A stretch of DNA of 64,000 bases from an uncultured Parvularculaceae bacterium (lineage in GTDB: Bacteria > Pseudomonadota > Alphaproteobacteria > Caulobacterales > Parvularculaceae): the NCBI GenBank assembly GCA_947259375.1, contig CAMYLZ010000018.1, positions 55,441 to 119,440 of the forward strand, read 5' to 3'. The stretch's first letter is position 1; each line of letters opens with the position of its first letter. The notes beneath the pieces are model-generated. The model worked only from the letters and a program-made list of their open reading frames with translations, had not been told where the DNA came from and did no database searches. The position numbers were made by a program, and so were the translations under genes. Of this stretch, positions 35,188 through 47,472 are shown piece after piece.

Positions 35188-37356
35188 TTAACGAAGCGTT
35201 GCCGCGTCTTGACCGGATTCGGTTTCGGTTGATGCGGCGCGCCCCATGCCAAACAGATTGGCCTGCGCAATGCCGCGTTCGACGAAACGCGCTCGATCAG
35301 CCTCCGGCGCCCAGCCCAGAACCTGTTTGGCGGCGGCATTGTCGAAGGGCGAGCGCTGCGCACGCGAACTCCAGTCGCGAAAACTTGGGCGCGTGAGCCC
35401 GGGCTTCCTCGCAATCAGGCGTTTCAGCCAGTATTTCACCATATCGACAACGAAATAGGTCCAGACCGGCGTCGGGCCTGTGCGCATGCGAACGCCGCAG
35501 GCGCGGCTGACTTCATCAAAATAATCGCGCGCGGACAGCATCGGCTCGCCAATGAGGTTGAATGACCGGCCGAGCGCCTCCGGCTTGTCCATCGCCAGCA
35601 CCAGGCCGGCGGCGACATCATCGACCAGCACGAACGGCATGAAATTGCGCCCATCGCCCCAAAGTTTGCAGGCGGTCGCGCCGCGCCACATGGCAATCCC
35701 CCAATGCTGCAAGGGACCGCCCTTTCCGATAACGATACCCGGGCGCGCAATCACCAAAGACAAGTCACGCGCTCTTTGCAATGCCAGTAATTCCTCCTCA
35801 CACGCCGCTTTGGAGCGCGCATAAAGATTGCGGCGTTCGAGGTCTTCATCAAACGGGGTTTGCTCCGTAATCGTCCTATCAGCGTTCGATGCATCATATG
35901 AATCGATCGTGCCGGTATAAACCAGCCGTTTCACTCCCGCCGCCAGGCACGCCTCGCCAATTCGGCGCGTTACCGCGACGTCGTTCTCGAGATATCCCTG
36001 CCAGCTTGACTCACTCGCGCGCGCCAGGTGGAAAACGCCGTCAGCACCCGCCATCGCCGCCCTCAAGTCTTCATCAGACTTCAAATCGCCGCTTATGACC
36101 GATACCCGGCCATCCTGACGGGCGAGGCCGCCGCCTGCGCCGCGCGAGAAGACACGCACATGATATCCTTGGTCAAACAAGGCGCGACACAAAGCTCTTC
36201 CAATAAAACCTGTGCCGCCAATCACCAGCATCGTCTTGCCATTGGCTTCCGGCGGGGGCGTTTGGGCATCGCGCTTCGGCGCGAATTTCGAACCCGCATC
36301 CCCAACCGCCCGTTCGATCATTGCCGTAGCGCTTGCGGCAAGCCCCGCAGACAACCGCCCGTCAATGTCAGCGCCGTCATGCATGGAACGATAAAAACCA
36401 TCTACCGCGCGCTGTATCGATAGCCCGTAAGGCGCGTGCGCATTCAGCGATGTCAGTTGGCGAAACGCATTACCGGCGCCGGCGCTGAACGCCTGCCGCG
36501 CCGTCGACAATTGGCGAAGCAGCGGGCCGACGACAATATCGCCCATGGGCGCCGTCTCGCGCCGGTATGTATCCTCTGCAAAATCGTAATGCGCCACCGC
36601 GCCAAGCCCGCGTATGCGCAAGGACCGATGATCGCACCCCTCAACCAGCGACAGATTTAGATTCACCGACGTATGGCCCGCGCGGCCCGTAATGCGCCAA
36701 CCTTGATAGTGGGTGACCCCGCCGGGAATTTCGATGGGATTGCGCAAATCGACGCTAATGTCATCCAACGGTCCGAGAATATCCGCGACAAAAGCAAACA
36801 AATGCGGCCCAAGTTCGAATAGGAGGTTTTGCGGCTGGCGCAGCATCCACAGGCTGAAGGGGCCGGAACGCAGCGGCGCCAGCGGAAACTGCCAATTCGC
36901 TTCGAATGTATCGATCGGGCCGATAATCCCGCTCGCGATATCAGCCTTGAGCCGATCATAGGAAGGCAGCATCAGAAAATTATGATTGACGCCGAGATGC
37001 GCGCCCTTCGCGTTGCTGAGCGCATCAAGCCGCTGACAATCCTCAACATTCAAGGCAAACGGTTTTTCAACAAAAGCCGCGATACCGGCCTTCAGGATTT
37101 TTTCCGCTGCTTCCGCATGAATATGCGGCGGTGTTAAAACATGAACGCTGTCTGCGACGCCCGCATCGAGCATTTCATCGAGCGACGTAAACACGCGCGC
37201 CGCGCCGCAACGTCCGGCAAGCGCGTCGGCTGCATTGCGGGAAAGGTCGCAAACAGCGCTGATTTCAACGCCGGGCGTGCGCTTTAACGCGCCAGCATGC
37301 CAATCGGCGATGTACCCGGCGCCCAGAAGCGCGACTCTTGTTGCTGCTTTGCTCAT
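35188..37356 (-). CDS. Gfo/Idh/MocA oxidoreductase fused to NAD-dependent epimerase/dehydratase (SDR)
   Basis: N-half GAGYIA, VLTPPHIH, VEKPFA, GVNHNF, ELGPHL; C-half GGTGFIG, VFHLA, YARSK, RPGIVIG. Confidence 0.88.
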   Translation of the reverse strand: MSKAATRVALLGAGYIADWHAGALKRTPGVEISAVCDLSRNAADALAGRCGAARVFTSLDEMLDAGVADSVHVLTPPHIHAEAAEKILKAGIAAFVEKPFALNVEDCQRLDALSNAKGAHLGVNHNFLMLPSYDRLKADIASGIIGPIDTFEANWQFPLAPLRSGPFSLWMLRQPQNLLFELGPHLFAFVADILGPLDDISVDLRNPIEIPGGVTHYQGWRITGRAGHTSVNLNLSLVEGCDHRSLRIRGLGAVAHYDFAEDTYRRETAPMGDIVVGPLLRQLSTARQAFSAGAGNAFRQLTSLNAHAPYGLSIQRAVDGFYRSMHDGADIDGRLSAGLAASATAMIERAVGDAGSKFAPKRDAQTPPPEANGKTMLVIGGTGFIGRALCRALFDQGYHVRVFSRGAGGGLARQDGRVSVISGDLKSDEDLRAAMAGADGVFHLARASESSWQGYLENDVAVTRRIGEACLAAGVKRLVYTGTIDSYDASNADRTITEQTPFDEDLERRNLYARSKAACEEELLALQRARDLSLVIARPGIVIGKGGPLQHWGIAMWRGATACKLWGDGRNFMPFVLVDDVAAGLVLAMDKPEALGRSFNLIGEPMLSARDYFDEVSRACGVRMRTGPTPVWTYFVVDMVKYWLKRLIARKPGLTRPSFRDWSSRAQRSPFDNAAAKQVLGWAPEADRARFVERGIAQANLFGMGRAASTETESGQDAATLR

Positions 37357-38336
37357 TTGTACTCGACGATCTCAACCTTTGCGCCCGTCAGCATTCGCCA
37401 GCGGTGTTTCAGGATGCCAATCAGGTTTGGAAATTTCGCTAACGTCAAAAACGCTGCGCCCAGGCTTGCATGACGCGGCGCTTCTCCCCGGCGGATCAGC
37501 CCTTGCCGGGTGCGCAGAAACGATGCCGGATACAGGCCCAGCAATAAAAAGCTCAAGCCATTCGATAATGGCGCGCCGACAAGCGCCGCCGCTGGCAGGG
37601 CGAGCCCCCAGCCCCAAGCGCGCCGGCGCTCGGCGCGGAAATAATCACGATGCAAATCGCCGAGCTGCGCAAAAGCGCAGCCGGCCCGAACCATCCGCCG
37701 CCACCATTGCCCGAATTCATGCATATCCGCATCGTGAAAACACATGTCGCGATCGATCCGCACGATGCGCGCGCCATTGGCGCGAATGCGAATGCAAAAA
37801 TCATCATCCTCCGCGGCGATAATATTGTCGCGAAACCCTTCAACGCCGCGAAAGGCGTATGCCCGGACCATAAAAATTCCGCCGCATGCATTTATATCGC
37901 CAGCCGGGCCGCGCCATTCAATTTCACACAAGCGGTTATAAATGCTCGCATCGGGGAGCCGCTCGCGGCAACGGCCGGTGACAACGCCAATTGTTTCGTC
38001 ATGGCTGAGCGTCGCAGCGGCGGTTTCAATGAAACCATCTATAAGCGCACAATCGCCGTCGATAAACATAACATAATCGGTATCGGGCCAGCGCGCTTCC
38101 AGCGCACGGAACCCGGCATTGCGCGCCCGCGCCGCTGTAAAACCGTTTGCTTCTTCAAGCGAGACGACAAGCGCGCCGTGTTCTTCCGCATAAGGAACGC
38201 TTTCATCGACAGAACCGGAATCCACATATACGATCCGCTCGCCAGCGCCTTTCAACGACGCCAGGCATTGTTTGAAGCGTTCGCCCTCGTTCCGCCCTAT
38301 GGCGACAAAGCCAATTGTTCGTTTCAGGTCATTCAC
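37353..38336 (-). CDS. Glycosyltransferase family 2
   Basis: GTG start overlapping the upstream TGA; IGRNEGERF..CL, VDSGSVD, RARNAG, FIDGD (DxD), EDDDFCIR. Confidence 0.9.
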   Translation of the reverse strand: MNDLKRTIGFVAIGRNEGERFKQCLASLKGAGERIVYVDSGSVDESVPYAEEHGALVVSLEEANGFTAARARNAGFRALEARWPDTDYVMFIDGDCALIDGFIETAAATLSHDETIGVVTGRCRERLPDASIYNRLCEIEWRGPAGDINACGGIFMVRAYAFRGVEGFRDNIIAAEDDDFCIRIRANGARIVRIDRDMCFHDADMHEFGQWWRRMVRAGCAFAQLGDLHRDYFRAERRRAWGWGLALPAAALVGAPLSNGLSFLLLGLYPASFLRTRQGLIRRGEAPRHASLGAAFLTLAKFPNLIGILKHRWRMLTGAKVEIVEYK

Positions 38337-39529
38337 GGGCGCGGCTCCGCATCGTCGCCGCGCGTCGGCGTCCACTGCTTGACGCTGTCGCGCCCCGCCT
38401 TGCCGAATACTTTCGCTTTCGCTGCGATGAACTGAATGCCTCCGCCAATCGCCGACGGCGGCAGGGCGTCGCGCCCATACGCAACCCAGCCGATGAATAA
38501 AGCAAGGCCGGTCAAAACAAGCGCCGAAATTCCAAGCGAGAACGCGCCGAAAAACCCTGTCGCCAGCCAGGTCGCGCAACCGAGCCCCGCCACGGCTCCA
38601 AGCATGGCGATAAACAAAGTCAGCGGCGGGATCATAAGGTCCGCCGCCGCGCCGATTAACCGCCAATTCCGTTGCTCAATCCCCTGCCTGATCAAGGCCA
38701 TGAACGACCGTGCGGCAAAGCGAACCGACCCGAGCGACCAACGCGCCGCCTGGCGGGTCATCGCCGCTTCTCCGGTCGGAAACAGGCTCGTCACGGCCGC
38801 ATCTTGCGCCAGCATCGGCGCCGCGCCGGCGCGCACCAGTTGCAAGGACAGCGCGAGGTCTTCGACAATCTCGCCGGATCCGACCTTCGCATGCTCAACC
38901 GTTCGCCACGGCGCAGCAAAACCGGACCCGGTAAAACGGGTCACGTCGAATATTCGCTGCAATCCGCTCATGCGCACTTTATTGATGAACAGCCAGGCGA
39001 ACTCCGCCGCCTGCCACCGCGGCCCGGCGCCGGCAGGCGCCTTCATCAGGTAAAGCGCTTGCACAGGACGGCCTTCCTGCGCGGCAAGGCCAGCGACCTT
39101 TTGCAAGGCGCCGTCATCAAACAGACAATCAGCATCTGCGAAGACGATGATCGCCGGCGGCGCCGCGCGCAACGCATCGATGGCGAATTGCAGCGCATAT
39201 CCCTTGCCGCGTGCTTCCGGCGCATTGCGCACCAGCACTTCAGCGCCATGCCGCAGGGCGGTTTCCGCAGTTTCATCAGTGCAATTATCCGCAACCACAA
39301 TCAAACGGTCGCGATCACGCAATTGAGCGCGAATATTATCGAGCGTCGGCGCAATGGTTCCCGCCTCGTTATGCGCCGGCACGACGATGGCAATCGGCCC
39401 GGCGCCGTCCGCCGCTGGTCGGAGCGTCACAGGCGCAAGCGCGGCGATCGCCTCGGCAAACAGGAGCCCTGCCAATGCGAGGCCCGCCATCGCAAGCCCT
39501 GTCGAGGTGATAATCAAAAATACGGACAT
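38333..39529 (-). CDS. Glycosyltransferase family 2 (membrane-anchored)
   Basis: VPAHNE, ADNCTD, GKGYAL, FADADC, EDLAL, RQAARW (QxxRW). Confidence 0.9.
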   Translation of the reverse strand: MSVFLIITSTGLAMAGLALAGLLFAEAIAALAPVTLRPAADGAGPIAIVVPAHNEAGTIAPTLDNIRAQLRDRDRLIVVADNCTDETAETALRHGAEVLVRNAPEARGKGYALQFAIDALRAAPPAIIVFADADCLFDDGALQKVAGLAAQEGRPVQALYLMKAPAGAGPRWQAAEFAWLFINKVRMSGLQRIFDVTRFTGSGFAAPWRTVEHAKVGSGEIVEDLALSLQLVRAGAAPMLAQDAAVTSLFPTGEAAMTRQAARWSLGSVRFAARSFMALIRQGIEQRNWRLIGAAADLMIPPLTLFIAMLGAVAGLGCATWLATGFFGAFSLGISALVLTGLALFIGWVAYGRDALPPSAIGGGIQFIAAKAKVFGKAGRDSVKQWTPTRGDDAEPRP

Positions 39530-39542
39530 GGGTGCTTGCCGT

Positions 39543-41672
39543 TCAGGGGCGGCTTGCGCCAAACCAATAACGCATTGCGCCGAGCAACTCGGGAAATTTT
39601 CCAAAAACAGAATAGAATCCGCGCCGCCAGGAAGCTGGCCGGAAAACGCCGCGGCGAAACACGCTGGCGAAAAACAGCAGCAAGTAAACAGCGAGCCCGG
39701 CGGCGACAACGCCGCCAGCCGCCACCGCCGCCGGCGTCAGCGGCGCGACCAGCGAGGCGGCAAACGCCGCTCCGCCGGCGAGCAGCGCCACGCCGAGCGG
39801 AAATACGCCGCCCCAGAAAACAGCGCGAAATGTCGGCGCAGCCCCATATCGCTCGGGCGGGCCGCCATGCAAGGAAACCGCATAAGCGTTGTCGAACCCA
39901 CGCCTCCGACAGGCGCGCCACCAACGTCCGACCGTCGGCCTTTGTTTTTCATATATCGCCATATCGGCTTCAAGCCGCCAGATATGCGCGCCGCGCCGGC
40001 GCTGGCGAATGCACAGATCCTCAAGATCGCACGACATCAAATCGCCACGAAAGCCGCCAGCCGCTTCGAACGACGCGGCGCGCACCAAAGCCGCGCCGCT
40101 CGCAGTCATGACGATTTCTCCGGGCTCGCCCAGCACTTTGGCGTCCTTGATGGATGAAAATTCCACCTTGTCGCCTGCGCCGCCGATGATCGCACCTTCA
40201 ACCATTGCGACTTCCGGACGCCGTTCGAGAAACCTCTCCGCTGTCGGCAGCCAGTCCGGATCGATGGCCGCGCCAGCCTCAATCAACTGAACATAATCGA
40301 GGCGCGAAGCCAGCCGTTTCAATTGCCGATAGCCGGCGTTGCGCGCCCGCCCGCCGGTTTGAAACGGTTTTCCATTATTTTCGACAACTACAGCGCCTGC
40401 ATTGCGGGCTTGCGAAAGCGCTTCGGGCATTTCAGCAAGCGGCGCAAAAATAATCGTCCGCCCCTCACGGGCCACGGAGCGGATGGTCGCCTCGGGCGAG
40501 ATTTCAGGATCTGCGCTGGTAATAACGACGCCCGTCGCCACCGCCGGCGCTGCGGCTGGCGTCTCCGATTCCCTTGACGGCGCCGGCGCCGGATCAGCCA
40601 GATCGACCGTCGCCGTCATGCTCACCGCCGCGGATGGCGCAAATTGATCAGGGGGCGATTTTTCATCCTGCGGCGGCGGCCCAACCATAGCGCGATCATG
40701 CGGGGTTGCCCTGAGGTCTGAAAAGCCGGACGCCGCAGCGTGCGACGCCTCTTGCGGGTCAAGCTGGTCGCTCAGCCGGGCGCCGCCGTTTGCAAACGCA
40801 TCCGGCCCTGCTTCTTCGTCCGCCGGGATTGGTCTTGCGCCGCCCTCATCCGACGCGATCCCGAAAACCCCGTAAGTCAGCTTGTCGCGAACGACATTGC
40901 GCACCGTTTCCACACCGACGACGCGATCCTCGGCGGAAAATGCGTATACCAGCGCAGTGTCCGCGATGATGTTGATCACCCGCGGCACGCCGCGTGACTG
41001 CTCAGCAATCAGATCAATGGCGCGTTCGGTGAAAATTCGCTGATGGCTGCCGGCGATCGACAGCCGTGTTTCGATATAGGCTTGCACCTCGTCACGGCTA
41101 AGCGGCGTCAGGTGAAAGTCCGAACCAACCCGCTGGGCGAGTTGTAACAGTTCGGGACGGTTGAGGAGCTCTTTAAGTTGCGGCTGGCCGACCAGTATCA
41201 ACTGCAGGAGCTGGTCCTTGCCGGCATTGATGTTGGACAAGAGCCGCAATTCCTCAAGCATGTCCATCGATAGGTTTTGCGCTTCGTCGATGATCAGGAC
41301 AATGCGCTTTCCCTTTGCGTATTCGCTTATGAAGAATGTCTGCAATTGCGAGAACAACCCGACATGACTGTTATCGTCAAATGGCTGGCCGAACGCCATC
41401 AGCACCCAACTCAGCAAATTTCCGCGCCCGGCCTGTACGTTGGAAAGCAGCGCGACTGTATGAGTGTCGGACAACTGGTCCAGCAGGCGATGGATGAGCG
41501 TGGTCTTGCCGCAGCCGACCTCTCCGGTAATTACGGAAATGCCCGCATGGTTGAGAACGCCGTATTCAAGCATCGCATAGGCGAGCCGATGCGTTCTCCC
41601 CCAGTAAAGAAACGACGGGTCCGGTTGGATTGAGAATGGTTTCTCCGAAAGGCCGAAAAACTGCTCATACAT
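39543..41672 (-). CDS. ExeA/PEP-CTERM-associated AAA ATPase fused to a degenerate GT2 domain
   Basis: MYEQFFGLSEKPF..QPDP, Walker A GEVGCGKT, Walker B IIDEAQ, LILVGQPQL, SRGVPRVIN; residues ~381-709 align with the GT2 at 37353-38336. Confidence 0.85.
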   Translation of the reverse strand: MYEQFFGLSEKPFSIQPDPSFLYWGRTHRLAYAMLEYGVLNHAGISVITGEVGCGKTTLIHRLLDQLSDTHTVALLSNVQAGRGNLLSWVLMAFGQPFDDNSHVGLFSQLQTFFISEYAKGKRIVLIIDEAQNLSMDMLEELRLLSNINAGKDQLLQLILVGQPQLKELLNRPELLQLAQRVGSDFHLTPLSRDEVQAYIETRLSIAGSHQRIFTERAIDLIAEQSRGVPRVINIIADTALVYAFSAEDRVVGVETVRNVVRDKLTYGVFGIASDEGGARPIPADEEAGPDAFANGGARLSDQLDPQEASHAAASGFSDLRATPHDRAMVGPPPQDEKSPPDQFAPSAAVSMTATVDLADPAPAPSRESETPAAAPAVATGVVITSADPEISPEATIRSVAREGRTIIFAPLAEMPEALSQARNAGAVVVENNGKPFQTGGRARNAGYRQLKRLASRLDYVQLIEAGAAIDPDWLPTAERFLERRPEVAMVEGAIIGGAGDKVEFSSIKDAKVLGEPGEIVMTASGAALVRAASFEAAGGFRGDLMSCDLEDLCIRQRRRGAHIWRLEADMAIYEKQRPTVGRWWRACRRRGFDNAYAVSLHGGPPERYGAAPTFRAVFWGGVFPLGVALLAGGAAFAASLVAPLTPAAVAAGGVVAAGLAVYLLLFFASVFRRGVFRPASWRRGFYSVFGKFPELLGAMRYWFGASRP

Positions 41673-41742: not shown

Positions 41743-44157
41743 CTACATCCGGTCTAGCAGCGCCCGCACGTCATTTTCAAATATGAAGTCCGGGCCGCCA
41801 AGCCTCAGCGCCTCTTCAAGGCTTTCGCGGGCCGCTTCCTCGTCGCCGCTGGCGAATTGCGCGGCGCCAAGGTGATATCGCATTTCGGCGCTCTCGCCGA
41901 CGCCGGCCACCGCCTCGGCAAGATACTCAAGCGCCCGGTCATACTCACCGGAGCGATAATACGCCCAGCCGACCGTGTCGCGATAATAAGGGTTGTCGAG
42001 CGTTTCCAGGGTCTTCGCCACCTCAAGAGCGCGCGCGATGCTTGCGGCGTCCAAAAGCAGGTCGGAGGACAGGCTGACGAAATTGTTGGCGATAATACGA
42101 TCATTGGGACGCTCTTCGATCAGGTCCGAATAAATCGCCAATGCGCCTTGGCGGTCGCCGCGCTGGATCAGGACATCCGCCTTGAAAACCCGCATGGCGC
42201 TGTTTTCCGGCGCGGCCTGCAGACCGCGTTCAATCAACGCGGCGGCGTCTTCGAACCGCTCTTCGTCAAGATAATGCCGATAAACAAGCTCATAAGCTTC
42301 CGGACGCTCTGGCGCGACATCAATCGCCCGCTCCAGCGTCGCCAGATAGTCGTCATCATTATCGCGAGAATCATGAATGCGCGCCAACAGAAGATAGGCG
42401 GGATATTTGTCCGCATCGGAATTAATGATCCGGGTCAACAACGCTTCCGCGTCGTCCAGACGATCCGAGCGCATGTAAGCCGTCACCACTGCGGTCAGCG
42501 GCTGGCTTTCAAACGGAATTTTCTCCTCATTCGCTGCAAATGCATCAATAACGCCCTGATAGTCGCCAAGACCGATATAAGCGGCGGATTTGATCCTCGC
42601 CGCCAGAGCATCCTGATTGGCGACGTCTTCCAACAAGGCAGCGACTTCTTCCGCGCCGCGCCAGTCCTGCTTGGCAAGGCGAATGGAGGCAAGAAGTTTA
42701 AGGTTCTCCGTATCCCCCGGATGCGCCGCCAGCGAGTCCACCAGCACTTCCTCAGCCCGTTCTACATTGCGGCGGCGCAGGAGAAATCTTGAAAAACGCT
42801 GTGCGACGCCTGCCGCCCGATTACTCGTCTCGAAGGCTTTCGCCAATTCGGCCTGCGCAAAATTGAGATTGTCCTGTTTTTCGAACGCGGCCGCCATCAG
42901 CACCATGGCGTCATATTCATCCGGACTATTGTCCAGCGCCGAGCGAAGATTGACGACCGCCTGGTCATATTGAGCATCATCGATCTGCAATGCCGCCCGC
43001 TTGATTAATGCGGCTGTATTGCGCTCATCCGCCGCCAGAATTTCATCAATCAGGGCCCGCGCCTGATCTCGCTCGCCGTCTTTCAGCAACAAGACGGCGA
43101 TCTTGTTCTTGGCTTGAAATGCAATGTCGAGATTTTCGGATGCCGCAAGGCCGTCAAGAAGCGCGCGAGCGCTTTCGGCATCGTCTTCCTGCACATAAAA
43201 ATCCGCCAAGGCGAATTGCACTTTGGCATCGTCCGGATTGGCTTGCGCAAACGCCCGCAGCGTCGCTTCCGCCGCTTGAGCGCCTTCGATGCGATTGACG
43301 ATCCGCACGACATTGAGTTTTGCGTCGAGATTTTCCGGTTCAAGACCGGCGATCGCTTCCAATTGCTCGCGCGCCTGAGCGAGTTCGTCCCTTCGAATGA
43401 GCTCTTGTGTAAAAACCCGCCGATAGGCCGGTTCTTCAGGGAAGTTCTCGATAAGTTGCGCGTAAGCGTTCAATATCTCGGTCTCTCGGCCAAGCCGCTG
43501 GAGCGCGTGAATGCGCAATAACTGCAAAACCGCGATCTGCGGATTGATCTCAAGCGCCTTGTCGATTTCCGCCAGCGCCCCCTCGAAATCACCGTCTTGC
43601 GATTTTTGCGTCGCGAGGACGGTCACGGCCTCCGCGTTCGCCGGGTCTTCGGCCACGACGCCGCGTGCAATCTCAACAGCGCCCGCAGCATCGCCAATCT
43701 TCAAAAGCACTGCCGCTTTAAGCGAGCGCGCATCGACATTTTCCGCATCCAGCGCCAGCGCTTTTTCGGCTTTTTCGAGCGCCGATGTTTCATCGCTGCT
43801 CACGAGAAAGAGCTTGCCGAGTTTGATCTGCGCGTCGATTTGCGCCGGGTCGAGCCGCGCAACGCTTTGCAAAATCCCGAACATCGCCTTGAAGTCATTG
43901 CGCTGTTCAGCAATTTCCGCGAGCCCGACCAGCGACGGGATATGTTCCTCGTCGATCTTCAGGGCGTTTTGAAACTGGATATAGGCTTTCGGCAAATCAC
44001 CTGCTTCTAGATATTCCGCGCCATCCGTACTGTAACGCTCGACTTTCTGTTCAGGCGAGGCGCACGCGGCGGCCGCCAGCGCCATCGCCGATACAGCCGC
44101 AAATCTGAGATAGCCCGCTCGCTTGATCGAACCTTTCCGTTTGCCGATTGTCGTCAT
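41743..44157 (-). CDS. TPR-repeat lipoprotein, PrsT-like
   Basis: Basic N-region and lipobox LAAAAC, then TPR repeats along the whole length; ends RDTVGWAYY...YHLGAA. Confidence 0.85.
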   Translation of the reverse strand: MTTIGKRKGSIKRAGYLRFAAVSAMALAAAACASPEQKVERYSTDGAEYLEAGDLPKAYIQFQNALKIDEEHIPSLVGLAEIAEQRNDFKAMFGILQSVARLDPAQIDAQIKLGKLFLVSSDETSALEKAEKALALDAENVDARSLKAAVLLKIGDAAGAVEIARGVVAEDPANAEAVTVLATQKSQDGDFEGALAEIDKALEINPQIAVLQLLRIHALQRLGRETEILNAYAQLIENFPEEPAYRRVFTQELIRRDELAQAREQLEAIAGLEPENLDAKLNVVRIVNRIEGAQAAEATLRAFAQANPDDAKVQFALADFYVQEDDAESARALLDGLAASENLDIAFQAKNKIAVLLLKDGERDQARALIDEILAADERNTAALIKRAALQIDDAQYDQAVVNLRSALDNSPDEYDAMVLMAAAFEKQDNLNFAQAELAKAFETSNRAAGVAQRFSRFLLRRRNVERAEEVLVDSLAAHPGDTENLKLLASIRLAKQDWRGAEEVAALLEDVANQDALAARIKSAAYIGLGDYQGVIDAFAANEEKIPFESQPLTAVVTAYMRSDRLDDAEALLTRIINSDADKYPAYLLLARIHDSRDNDDDYLATLERAIDVAPERPEAYELVYRHYLDEERFEDAAALIERGLQAAPENSAMRVFKADVLIQRGDRQGALAIYSDLIEERPNDRIIANNFVSLSSDLLLDAASIARALEVAKTLETLDNPYYRDTVGWAYYRSGEYDRALEYLAEAVAGVGESAEMRYHLGAAQFASGDEEAARESLEEALRLGGPDFIFENDVRALLDRM

Positions 44158-44225: not shown

Positions 44226-45452
44226 TTAGCTGGCAACCCGCTCTTTCGCGTCGCTGGCTTGCTGCTCGGCGCTCGCCGCCGCTCCGCAAGCATAATTCAT
44301 GCTGTTCAACCGTAACACGCGCCGCTGCGCCGGGCTGACCCCCTCCAAGGTGATCCGCTCGGCTCCAATGTGCTTTTCCAGCATCAAAAGCATTCCGAGA
44401 AACGCCCGATCAAACCGCGCGCCCGGCGCGAATACCAGCCGCACCGGGCGGTTCGCCGATGCCGCCTGCCGGAACGCGTCGCTCACCGGGGCGAGGCCCC
44501 TGCGCAAAAGGCGTCCGGAAAGTTCGATGCGCGATTCCGCAACGCCGAGCATGATGGCGGCGCCGGCCGGCGCCCCAGCGCCGCGACCGGCGCGTCCGAG
44601 TTGCGGCGCAACGCGCGTCAAAAACAAACCGGCCAGCGCGATCGCGTCCTCAAAATAACGCCGCCATAGTGACGGCTCTTCCTTGATGCGCCAGGCCCAT
44701 TCCAGTCCCAAATGCTGCAAGCGCCGCGGCGCGCGCGCGATGCCGCCCGCCGTAAAGTCAATCACCGCGCCAAGATGCGCCGTCACCGGCGCCATCAGTC
44801 GTTCGCGATTGCGCTCGATCCAAGCCTGCCCCTTTGCCGCGCCCAAGGCGACAATGACGAAATCCGGCGCCGTTGCATTGATATCGTTAATGACATCTTC
44901 TCCGCTCATGCTCTCCACATCGCCATAGCCCGGATTACGCCACCCAACCGCCTGTACGCCGTTTGATTCAGCATTGATCATCTTCGCCGCGGCTTCAGCG
45001 GCGCCGTCGCGCCCGCCGAAAAAGAATATTTTAAGCGGATGGCCGACAAAGGCGGGCCGCCGCCGCAACGCTTCGAACAGGTCGGAGCCGGCGACGCGCG
45101 TCGAAACCGGTATGCCCAGCAATCGCGCCATTAACACCAGCGGCCCGCCATCAATCAGGCTGAGATCGGCATTCAGGATCCGGCGCCGCTCCTGGCGGTC
45201 TCGCGCCGCGCGCACCAGCCAATTTACATTCGGCGTTACAAAAGACAGGCGGGCGCCGGAACGCACCGCAGTATCAATCGCCGCCACCGCCTGATTGATA
45301 TCGGCCATATCGACCGGCAGTCCCAACAAGCACCATACGTCGCGATCAAAATCATCGCGCCGCAAGGACGCGACGGGACCGCGCAACCTTGTCGTTGCGC
45401 CTGAGGCGGCGGACGCCTTGCTATTCGTCATGTCAGGCCGCGGCTCAGCCAT
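44226..45452 (-). CDS. WecB/TagA/CpsF glycosyltransferase with C-terminal STAS-like extension
   Basis: VTPNVN, LSLIDG, RVAGSDL, FFGG, IVALGAAKGQ.WI, GLEWAWR..EEP.LWRRY; ~95-aa tail. Start is 45452 or 45431. Confidence 0.87.
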   Translation of the reverse strand: MAEPRPDMTNSKASAASGATTRLRGPVASLRRDDFDRDVWCLLGLPVDMADINQAVAAIDTAVRSGARLSFVTPNVNWLVRAARDRQERRRILNADLSLIDGGPLVLMARLLGIPVSTRVAGSDLFEALRRRPAFVGHPLKIFFFGGRDGAAEAAAKMINAESNGVQAVGWRNPGYGDVESMSGEDVINDINATAPDFVIVALGAAKGQAWIERNRERLMAPVTAHLGAVIDFTAGGIARAPRRLQHLGLEWAWRIKEEPSLWRRYFEDAIALAGLFLTRVAPQLGRAGRGAGAPAGAAIMLGVAESRIELSGRLLRRGLAPVSDAFRQAASANRPVRLVFAPGARFDRAFLGMLLMLEKHIGAERITLEGVSPAQRRVLRLNSMNYACGAAASAEQQASDAKERVAS

Positions 45453-45846: not shown

Positions 45847-47472
45847 ATGACCAGCACGCCACCCGAAAAGGGGCCGCATTCGGGCTCATTCACCAAGCTT
45901 CGTCCTGCTTACCTTGTCGGCATGCTGTGCGCGGCGATTCTGTTCGCTTTTTTTGGTGGAATTGAGAATCTTTTCAAACGCTGGGGCGAACAGCAAGAGC
46001 TCAGCCATGGTTACTTCCTGCCCGTGATCACCAGCTGGATGCTCTGGTCGCGGCGCCAGGCGCTCACGCAAAGCGTCAGCCGCCCCGAATGGCTCGGCCT
46101 TGCCGGCGTCGCAATCGCCGCCATCGTGCTGATCTTGTCAGAACTGACCGTCACATCGCTGATGATCTTCCAACAGCTCGCCATGATCGCGCTGTTTTCG
46201 TCGCTGGCGCTGGCGCTTGGCGGTTGGGGTTTGTTCCGGCTGACCCTGCTTCCCGTCGGTTTCCTGCTGTTCATGGTGCCGCCGCCATATTGGGCGATCA
46301 CGGTACTGTCTCAGCAGTTCCAGCTATGGTCGTCGCAAATCGGCGTTGCGATGATCGAGATGTTCGGCATACCTGTGCTGCTGACCGGAAACATCATCGA
46401 CCTTGGCGATTACAAATTACAGGTCGCCGAGGCCTGCAGCGGCTTGCGGTATCTATTCCCATTTCTCAGCCTCGGTTTTCTCGCCGCCTATCTCTTCAAT
46501 GCGCCATTATGGCAGCGCGCGGTCGTTTTTATTTCGACAATTCCGATCACCATTCTCATGAACAGTTTCCGGATCGCCGTTACCGGCATCCTGGTGCAGC
46601 AATTCGGCGCCGAACATGCCGAAGGGTTCATTCATCTGTTCGAAGGCTGGGTGGTCTTCCTGTTCTGCTTGGCGCTTCTTTTCGGCCTCATCGCCGCGCT
46701 GGCGCGTTTTTCCGGGCGCAAGGATGTCAGCGCGCTACTCACCCTGCCGGAAATCAGCCCGATTAAAGCCGCCCACTCCTGGTCGGCGTCAGTATTCAAG
46801 AAATTCGCGCTGGCCTCTATCGCGATCATCGCCGCCGCCGGCGCCTATGTGCATTATGGCATTTCCAATGTCCTGAAAATTCCGGCGCGCGCAGATCTCG
46901 CCGCCCTCACTTACGAATTTCCCGGCTGGCGCACCGACATCGCCGAAGTCGACGCGCAAACCCTGGAAGTGCTCGGTGCGGACGATTACCTGATCACCAA
47001 TATGACCAGCCCTGAGGGCGAGCTGTTCAACCTTTATATCGCCTATATAAACATGCAGCGGCACGGCCATAGCTGGCACTCCCCGCGTCAATGCATTCCC
47101 GGCGGCGGATGGCAGATTACGCGTCACGACGTCGTTCCGATCACGCTCGAGACCGGCAGGACGTTCCATTACAACCGCATCATCATCGAGAATCGCGGCC
47201 AGCGTCAGCTTCTCTATTACTGGTACGATCAACGCGGGCGGAAAATTGCAAATGAATTCGTGATGAAGTTCATGCTGATCCTTGACGCGGTACGGATCCG
47301 ACGGACCGACGGCGCCATGATCCGCATCATGACCCCGATTACCACGAACGAGAGCCTTAATGAGGCCGATCAGCGCTTGCTCGGTTATATGCGCGAATTG
47401 CAGCCAAAGCTTCCAGCCTATATTCCGCCCGCCGACGCGCCGGCGACCCGGGAATTCGACCCTGGGGCGTAA
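45847..47472 (+). CDS. Exosortase with C-terminal EpsI domain (XrtD-like)
   Basis: W..QQELSHG, VAEACSGLRY (Cys), NSFRI (Arg), HAEGFIHLFEGW; EpsI part ADDYL, YIAY, HSPRQCIPGGGW, YYWY.QRGR, RRTDGAMIR. Confidence 0.9.
   Translation: MTSTPPEKGPHSGSFTKLRPAYLVGMLCAAILFAFFGGIENLFKRWGEQQELSHGYFLPVITSWMLWSRRQALTQSVSRPEWLGLAGVAIAAIVLILSELTVTSLMIFQQLAMIALFSSLALALGGWGLFRLTLLPVGFLLFMVPPPYWAITVLSQQFQLWSSQIGVAMIEMFGIPVLLTGNIIDLGDYKLQVAEACSGLRYLFPFLSLGFLAAYLFNAPLWQRAVVFISTIPITILMNSFRIAVTGILVQQFGAEHAEGFIHLFEGWVVFLFCLALLFGLIAALARFSGRKDVSALLTLPEISPIKAAHSWSASVFKKFALASIAIIAAAGAYVHYGISNVLKIPARADLAALTYEFPGWRTDIAEVDAQTLEVLGADDYLITNMTSPEGELFNLYIAYINMQRHGHSWHSPRQCIPGGGWQITRHDVVPITLETGRTFHYNRIIIENRGQRQLLYYWYDQRGRKIANEFVMKFMLILDAVRIRRTDGAMIRIMTPITTNESLNEADQRLLGYMRELQPKLPAYIPPADAPATREFDPGA

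Follow-up and report, generated by a model that had tools for sequence, protein, structure and literature searches.

The ExeA/GspA ATPases of type II secretion in Aeromonas and Vibrio have an N-terminal cytoplasmic AAA_22 ATPase with GxxGxGKT and DEAQ motifs and a C-terminal module that ties the ATPase to the inner membrane, and ExeA works with envelope assembly machinery; it crosses the membrane with one helix, carries its peptidoglycan-binding domain in the periplasm and has ExeB and a secretin as partners. ExeA-like ATPases are also a conserved yet unexplained part of exosortase/PEP-CTERM polysaccharide loci, and one of them was recently found to be essential for exopolysaccharide (EPS) production by a mechanism that is not known. 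In Sphingomonas sp. LM7, EPS production depends on PrmE, the AAA+ ATPase encoded in the promonan cluster (PMC11340318). Here we describe P0001, an ATPase of this kind that is fused to a glycosyltransferase (GT)-like module. Its gene lies in a 64,000-nt stretch of DNA from an uncultured Parvularculaceae bacterium (GCA_947259375.1, contig CAMYLZ010000018.1, positions 55,441-119,440, forward), which we call the window; coordinates below are window positions, and the internal labels P, L and G stand for proteins, loci and genomes. The ATPase is of an already known kind (ExeA/TIGR03015-like AAA_22), whereas its combination with a probable pseudo-GT appears to be new and is limited to Parvularculaceae. 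We think it fairly likely that P0001 is a membrane-tethered ATPase with a non-catalytic GT2 adaptor working in an exosortase-linked polysaccharide machinery.

P0001 resembles ExeA in its N-terminal AAA_22 ATPase and in a C-terminal module that would hold it at the inner membrane, and differs in that this C-terminus is a cytoplasmic degenerate GT2 domain with a membrane hairpin and that the locus is devoted to exosortase and polysaccharide functions. The XrtA/PEP-CTERM ATPase family TIGR03015 is its best hidden Markov model match and likewise belongs to exosortase/EPS loci, with a PrsT-like TPR protein, a chain-length determinant, a BY-kinase-like protein and an exosortase nearby; P0001 nevertheless scores below the family cut-off, is accompanied by XrtD rather than XrtA, and has 440 residues more than the 269-position model. 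Compared by description, PrmE (PMC11340318) is likewise an ATPase distinct from the BY-kinase and is encoded beside Wzz, BY-kinase and WecG/TagA genes; unlike P0001, it has no reported GT-like domain, and its pathway has Wzx and Wzy.

Architecture of the ATPase-GT fusion

P0001 (709 aa; 39543..41672, minus strand, as are all its parts) is encoded by a single uninterrupted open reading frame (ORF) and is almost certainly composed of an ATPase, a linker and a GT2-fold domain with a membrane hairpin. The ATPase domain (aa 1-268; 40869..41672) has TIGR03015 pepcterm_ATPase as its top match (aa 1-263 on model positions 1-265 of 269, E 6e-85), though its 284.9 bits miss the curated cut-off of 324.5, and PF13401 AAA_22 matches aa 42-170 with 98.4 bits against a gathering threshold of 27. 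Walker A (GEVGCGKT, aa 50-57; 41502-41525) and Walker B (IIDEAQ, aa 127-132; 41277-41294) are both intact, in agreement with the initial annotation, which had read an intact ExeA/PEP-CTERM-type ATPase from the sequence. AlphaFold2 models the domain confidently, and a Foldseek search of the PDB places aa 40-267 nearest to ORC/Cdc6-type AAA+ proteins. A Pfam scan of P0001 detected no peptidoglycan-binding domain, and the locus genes scanned with Pfam and NCBIfam include no ExeB/GspB or secretin, a genome-wide search for these not having been made. The same genome carries a second ExeA-like ATPase outside the window (G000:C4:12410-13354; 464-aa open frame, 37% identity over aa 1-315), and most related genomes have comparable paralogues of their own.

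The C-terminal half is colinear with P0002, an intact 327-aa GT2 encoded nearby (37353..38336, minus strand; PF00535, 48 bits): BLASTP aligns P0001 aa 396-702 with P0002 aa 24-311 at 28% identity (E 5e-25), and every motif originally quoted for this relationship is present. The RARNAG motif (40332-40349), the (E/D)D-hCIR motif and the C-terminal helices are preserved, and the Asp in the catalytic-base position, D552, sits in LEDLCIR (40005-40025). The DGD motif of P0002, by contrast, falls on E465-A-G467 of P0001 (within 40266-40283), its YVDSGSVDES loop on IFAPLAEMPE (40422-40451), and a Pro replaces the first nucleotide-binding Asp; loss of the DxD motif and of the VDSGSVD loop with retention of the membrane helices had been noted at first reading and holds. 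No Pfam family, PF00535, PF13641 and PF13632 included, matches aa 381-709 even at E<=10, although weak precomputed GT2 Pfam matches exist for some relatives, and a profile search of PDB sequences gave no significant relatives.

Structure prediction places what family models miss. The AlphaFold2 model of P0001 (83 homologues, mean predicted local distance difference test score [pLDDT] 78, predicted template modelling score [pTM] 0.56) has pLDDT mostly above 90 at aa 380-705 and below 50 at aa 271-369, where the chain is disordered. The Ala/Pro/Asp/Ser-rich linker thus delimited by pLDDT, composition and motif comparison spans aa 269-380 (40533..40868). In Foldseek searches of the PDB the C-terminal half lies among GT-A/GT2 enzymes, with probability 1.00 to 6p61, WrtF, SpsA, hyaluronan synthase and BcsA, and alignments of 345-409 columns take in the interface and membrane helices of hyaluronan synthase (7sp7), BcsA and PcManGT (6yv7). 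Hyaluronan synthase and PcManGT keep DxD and the catalytic motifs, unlike P0001, and are only 12-16% identical to it. The GT-like domain proper (aa 381-605; 39858..40532), delimited by BLASTP, Foldseek and family columns, is thus predicted to have a GT-A fold and to be catalytically degenerate; this half has the fold of the class yet is missed by the family sequence models and lacks two of three catalytic signatures. It is followed by a two-helix membrane hairpin (aa 611-674; 39651..39842), in which modelled helices at aa 611-642 and 648-674 coincide with Kyte-Doolittle peaks at 617-646 and 644-677, and by C-terminal helices (aa 679-704; 39561..39638) colinear with the GKFPxLxG end of P0002-type GT2s.

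The origin of the module is indicated by a phmmer search of 1.84e9 representatives with aa 381-709, in which the 36 matches below 1e-30 are fused proteins, fragments or stand-alone GT-like ORFs and the next-best matches, at about 1e-29 to 1e-32, are GT2s of about 330 aa of the P0002 type with an IGRNEGERL N-terminus. By this ranking, the GT-like module is descended from a P0002-type membrane GT2.

Conservation and loss of donor and metal sites

A search with aa 380-709 gave 176 proteins at E<=0.001. Among the best 120 of these, 107 are full-length (>=640 aa) with the ATPase P-loop motif GxxGCGKT, and all but seven of the 107 match the Walker B pattern (DEAQ). Full-length homologues of 700-790 aa fill more than 100 protein clusters, which databases name "AAA family ATPase", "general secretion pathway protein A" or "ExeA"; none of the names mentions the GT half. 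A survey of the architecture across genomes, suggested with the first reading of the sequence, traced it to a single family of marine alphaproteobacteria: in 151 genomes of the order matches are confined to Parvularculaceae, the family of the window, and a scan of species-representative genomes yielded 80 loci, all in Parvularculaceae (Hyphococcus, Marinicaulis, Amphiplicatus, Parvularcula and others). In Hyphococcus flavus, whose genome is complete, both the gene and its order among its neighbours are the same. NCBIfam contains no full-length model of the fusion, and a literature search on XrtD and VPLPA-CTERM returned nothing relevant; neither a curated family nor a paper that we found describes the ATPase-GT2 combination, so the novelty first suspected for it stands as far as curated families go.

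Could the fusion be an artefact of misassembly or frameshifting, or its GT-like half a functionless, decaying remnant? The catalytic motifs are indeed eroded, and in one metagenome-assembled genome the homologous gene (L003, 7507-9701) is frameshifted inside the ATPase domain; several adjacent genes are also split there, and this case is probably an assembly error or a pseudogene. The single uninterrupted ORF nevertheless recurs in complete genomes and in more than 60 species-level genomes, which excludes misassembly as a general explanation. Identity to the window, taken as the median over one set of 38 species, is 86% for the ATPase domain, 57% for P0002, 56% for the WecG-STAS transferase encoded in the locus, 53% for the TPR protein, 49% for the EpsU-like GT2 and 46% for the GT-like domain. 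The GT-like domain thus evolves about as slowly as the true GTs of the locus, and purifying selection acts on it as on any folded domain. With 28 invariant columns in the GT half, identity on a par with functional neighbours and pLDDT above 90, decay or artefact is refuted as far as these alignments tell, and we give it next to no weight.

Constraint on the fold is not matched at the sites for donor and metal. In an alignment of the 107 full-length members, the first nucleotide-binding Asp is absent from every one, its position being Pro in 48, Ala in 40, Ser in 12 and other residues in the rest. The DxD position reads DxD in 31, ExG in 21 and DxG in 16, and elsewhere DxS/E/N/A/H/Q/R, NxD, QxG or SxG; the Q of QxxRW is unconserved. 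The P0002 family (117 members), by comparison, retains VDSGS.D, DGD, ED and QWWRR in >=95%. In a maximum-likelihood tree from which the DxD columns were left out, the "DxD intact" state changes 19 times, at least 17 of them forced by well-supported branches, and it switches even between close relatives (DAD/DAS, DAD/DVN). Because purifying selection at the level of the domain is accompanied by relaxation limited to donor and metal sites, the family carries the signature of a pseudoenzyme, and we consider the GT-like module probably not to be a working transferase. Standard annotation misses what would be a clean bacterial example of a GT-A pseudoenzyme.

An enzyme with an altered donor, such as a polyprenyl-phosphate sugar, a metal-independent enzyme or a neo-functionalised hydrolase or transferase would offer a different account of the same columns and would make the protein bifunctional. 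Among the 28 invariant columns are R442 of RARNAG and D552 (107/107 each), DxD persists in some members, family-specific charged residues have become invariant, and the overall constraint resembles that of real GTs. Yet not one member keeps the first nucleotide-binding Asp, DxD flips repeatedly, even among close relatives, as an essential metal site would not be expected to do, the domain escapes every Pfam GT2 model, and the nearest active family conserves all these residues; we therefore regard retained catalysis as a general explanation as unlikely.

Inactive GT paralogues that act as partners or anchors are exemplified by GtfB/Gtf2, which works with GtfA, and by GAUT7, which works with GAUT1. 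The GT-like module of P0001 resembles them as a GT fold that has probably lost catalysis and would be kept to bind, stabilise or anchor. GtfB and GAUT7, however, are separate GT-B/GT8 proteins with an active paralogue as partner, whereas P0001 is a GT-A/GT2 domain fused to an AAA+ ATPase, for which no fixed active partner is evident.

An in-frame TGA between the two halves in relatives

Many relatives do not encode the two halves as one ORF. At 18 independent loci (those named being L039, L072, L074, L092, L097, L101, L103, L104, L105, L107, L115, L126-L130 and L002), a single stop codon is all that divides the ATPase from the GT-like ORF, which continues in its frame; a nineteenth locus, L085, is a near-duplicate. 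L002 (protein P0102) is a genuine same-frame TGA split and no assembly artefact; P0093 (L003), a candidate split, was rejected, its frameshift lying inside the ATPase domain. The separating stop is TGA at all 18 loci, and the base that follows is A in 16, C in two and U or G in none. According to a comparative study (PMC5289835), U in this +4 position lowers read-through in bacteria. At 17 of the 18 loci, L115 being the exception, the TGA stands in the context (F/Y)(I/L)K(E/D/G)x(S/T)DG(A/S)GG-TGA-A(A/G)G-(G/C)(G/A)N, conserved inside an otherwise unalignable linker, while the Lys codon after it varies synonymously between AAG and AAA. Thirty more database clusters consist of ATPase-only ORFs of about 300-350 aa that end in the same ...DGxGG tail.

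The stretch behind the TGA has the character of coding sequence. The first in-frame ATG, GTG or TTG occurs 6-77 codons past the TGA, at no fixed distance, and the split loci share no conserved start codon or Shine-Dalgarno sequence at a fixed distance after it. Between the TGA and the first possible start, 509 codons contain no in-frame stop, as against 13 and 42 in the other two frames; for the first ten split loci, composition predicts 12.7 stops in 395 codons (P about 3e-6). Codon-position GC follows the coding pattern GC1 > GC3 > GC2. These data suggest that the region after the TGA is translated in frame. Selenocysteine insertion was considered and rejected: no SelB scored above cut-off in 15 genomes, no downstream hairpin is conserved (mean z -0.6 for RNA structure after the TGA), and neighbouring genes use TGA as a normal stop. 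A pattern scan of metagenome contigs with the linker motif returned four chance matches only.

Sister taxa with an uninterrupted gene have a sense codon at the site, as in GGYKGD of L102 against GG*KGD of L103, or GGREQQ and GGSSRHA in relatives of L092. The TGA forms are scattered on the tree and often basal, L072 being sister to the whole Hyphococcus/Marinicaulis clade. On the simplest reading of these sequences, an old conserved TGA would have been replaced by a sense codon in several lineages, after which the motif decayed. Of this linker motif, which in relatives runs on to SDGxGG-TGA, the window retains only the opening GPDAF (aa 289-293; 40794-40808), and it has no stop at the homologous spot, about 40780-40810.

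The shared context and the absence of a stop in 509 codons before the next possible start suggest that the stop is leaky. We tentatively propose that functional read-through could yield a soluble short ATPase and a minor, membrane-tethered long form, and, with similar reserve, that several lineages, this genome included, may have hard-wired a leaky stop into a fusion. In either case the two halves act jointly, with or without a covalent bond between them, and their fusion has become fixed more than once. In phage Qbeta, a leaky UGA yields a short major coat product and the C-terminally extended minor A1 protein. The split relatives resemble this arrangement in having a candidate leaky UGA between a short and an extended product, and differ from it in that theirs is a cellular gene, conserved across genera, with an SDGxGG peptide context, no conserved RNA structure downstream, and known from sequence only. 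Were the TGA read through, it would be a rare conserved programmed recoding site in a cellular bacterial gene, with a defined and testable sequence context, and the fraction of the ATPase tethered to a dead glycosyltransferase would be a tuned parameter of polysaccharide assembly.

Locus and possible role

Upstream of the fusion lies a gene for a PrsT-like TPR lipoprotein with a signal peptide and an LAAAAC lipobox (41743..44157, minus strand; TIGR02917, 211.8 bits, below the cut-off of 312), then one for a WecG/TagA-family glycosyltransferase fused to a C-terminal STAS domain (44226..45452, minus strand; PF03808 150 bits, PF13466 40 bits), and, on the plus strand, that for exosortase XrtD with an EpsI domain (45847..47472; TIGR04152, 487.4 bits, cut-off 400). 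Downstream, 38333..39529 (minus strand) encodes an EpsU-like GT2 (NF041865 EpsU, E 7e-39; PF13641, 85 bits), which looks synthase-type because it carries QxxRW (RQAARW), DAD and ED motifs flanked by N- and C-terminal membrane helices. The TPR gene is immediately upstream of the fusion in 72 of 72 loci and the EpsU-like gene immediately downstream in 63 of 69, while only 33 of 62 have a P0002-type GT2 within 7 kb. An obligate partnership with the EpsU-like GT2 was considered and rejected: it is not found at E<=1e-15 in G111, G154 and G164, all of which carry the fusion, and it is present in the sister genus g3, which lacks the fusion.

The initial annotation had proposed that the pseudo-GT docks the ATPase onto the neighbouring active GT2, with which it would heterodimerise. 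P0002 is in fact the closest paralogue of the GT-like domain and is encoded two genes away in the window and in many Hyphococcus loci, and inactive GTs that partner active ones have the precedents named above. The idea is supported only in part, because a P0002-type paralogue is so often missing within 7 kb: the relationship holds, and a dedicated partnership does not. Whole clades, the Marinicaulis OFTM genomes among them, have no P0002-type GT2 in the locus, the G111 copy is on another contig, and the DxD state shows no link to the presence of P0002: 7 of the 34 loci that have a P0002-type gene keep DxD intact, as do 4 of the 23 that lack one. We judge such docking improbable.

In genus g3 the locus consists of no more than WecG-STAS, TPR and an unfused ATPase (L035/G041, L036/G066, L025/G101). 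This ATPase has 278-295 aa and stops directly after the AAA+ lid domain, and the three genes are set among the housekeeping genes dnaQ, coaE, aroE, maf, htpX and polA; this suggests that WecG-STAS, TPR and ATPase form the minimal conserved core module. The invariable TPR neighbour, the patchy presence of P0002-type enzymes, the EpsU exceptions and these minimal loci together identify the TPR lipoprotein and the WecG-STAS transferase as the companions that the ATPase always has. The GT-like module, present in part of the family only, is an addition to this set and has no single active GT as its fixed partner.

P0001 is almost certainly one inner-membrane protein, in which a cytoplasmic AAA+ ATPase is connected through a linker of about 110 aa to a cytoplasmic GT2 domain held by the two-helix hairpin. 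We posit that the GT module would no longer transfer sugar and would instead keep the ATPase on the cytoplasmic side of the membrane, by an exosortase-linked polysaccharide machinery comprising WecG-STAS, the TPR lipoprotein, a chain-length determinant with BY-kinase and usually the EpsU-like synthase-type GT2. A role as membrane anchor or adaptor is, on these sequences, an evenly balanced proposition; the module may well still bind a lipid-linked glycan or parts of the GT machinery. By analogy with ExeA in secretin assembly and with PrmE, the ATPase could be an ATP-dependent assembly or switch subunit. Evolution would have led from the ATPase alone, as in the sister genus, through ATPase-TGA-pseudoGT in one frame, as in many relatives, to the full fusion of this genome. 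A natural fusion that places the ATPase at the cytoplasmic membrane face, beside glycan-building enzymes, would give an experimental handle on the role of such ATPases in polysaccharide loci.

Several observations weigh against this proposal of a tethered ATPase with a dead GT adaptor. DxD is still present in 29% of members, D552 is invariant and RARNAG is retained, for which reason residual or altered catalysis may persist in some members, and the family has invariant charged residues of its own (R484, R485, E487, E536, R542 and D544). No GT partner is constant, P0002-type enzymes being within 7 kb in about half of the loci (33/62) and three fusion-bearing genomes having no EpsU-like GT2. The lipoprotein encoded by the TPR neighbour is periplasmic, yet the hairpin exposes only about five residues to the periplasm, which makes direct contact across the membrane doubtful. 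The AlphaFold2 model, with its pTM of 0.56, is uninformative on contacts between domains.

Some further features of these loci deserve mention. Many fusion loci (for example L038 in G111, and L004) have no XrtD within 7 kb, so the tie of the ATPase-pseudoGT to exosortase D is looser than the window suggests. A 458-aa ORF at 38333-39709 that overlaps the end of the fusion is an over-extension of the EpsU-like gene, whose start is most likely the ATG at 39529, 14 nt past the fusion stop. The WecG-STAS fusion is conserved throughout related loci. Next to P0002, 35188-37356 encodes a 722-aa fusion of a GFO/IDH/MocA oxidoreductase and an SDR epimerase, which in G111 are two separate genes (L041, 10288-12942). 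There, these dehydrogenase and epimerase genes stand beside the P0002-type GT2 on its separate contig, which indicates that the oxidoreductase, epimerase and P0002-type genes travel as one module, independently of the ATPase-pseudoGT.

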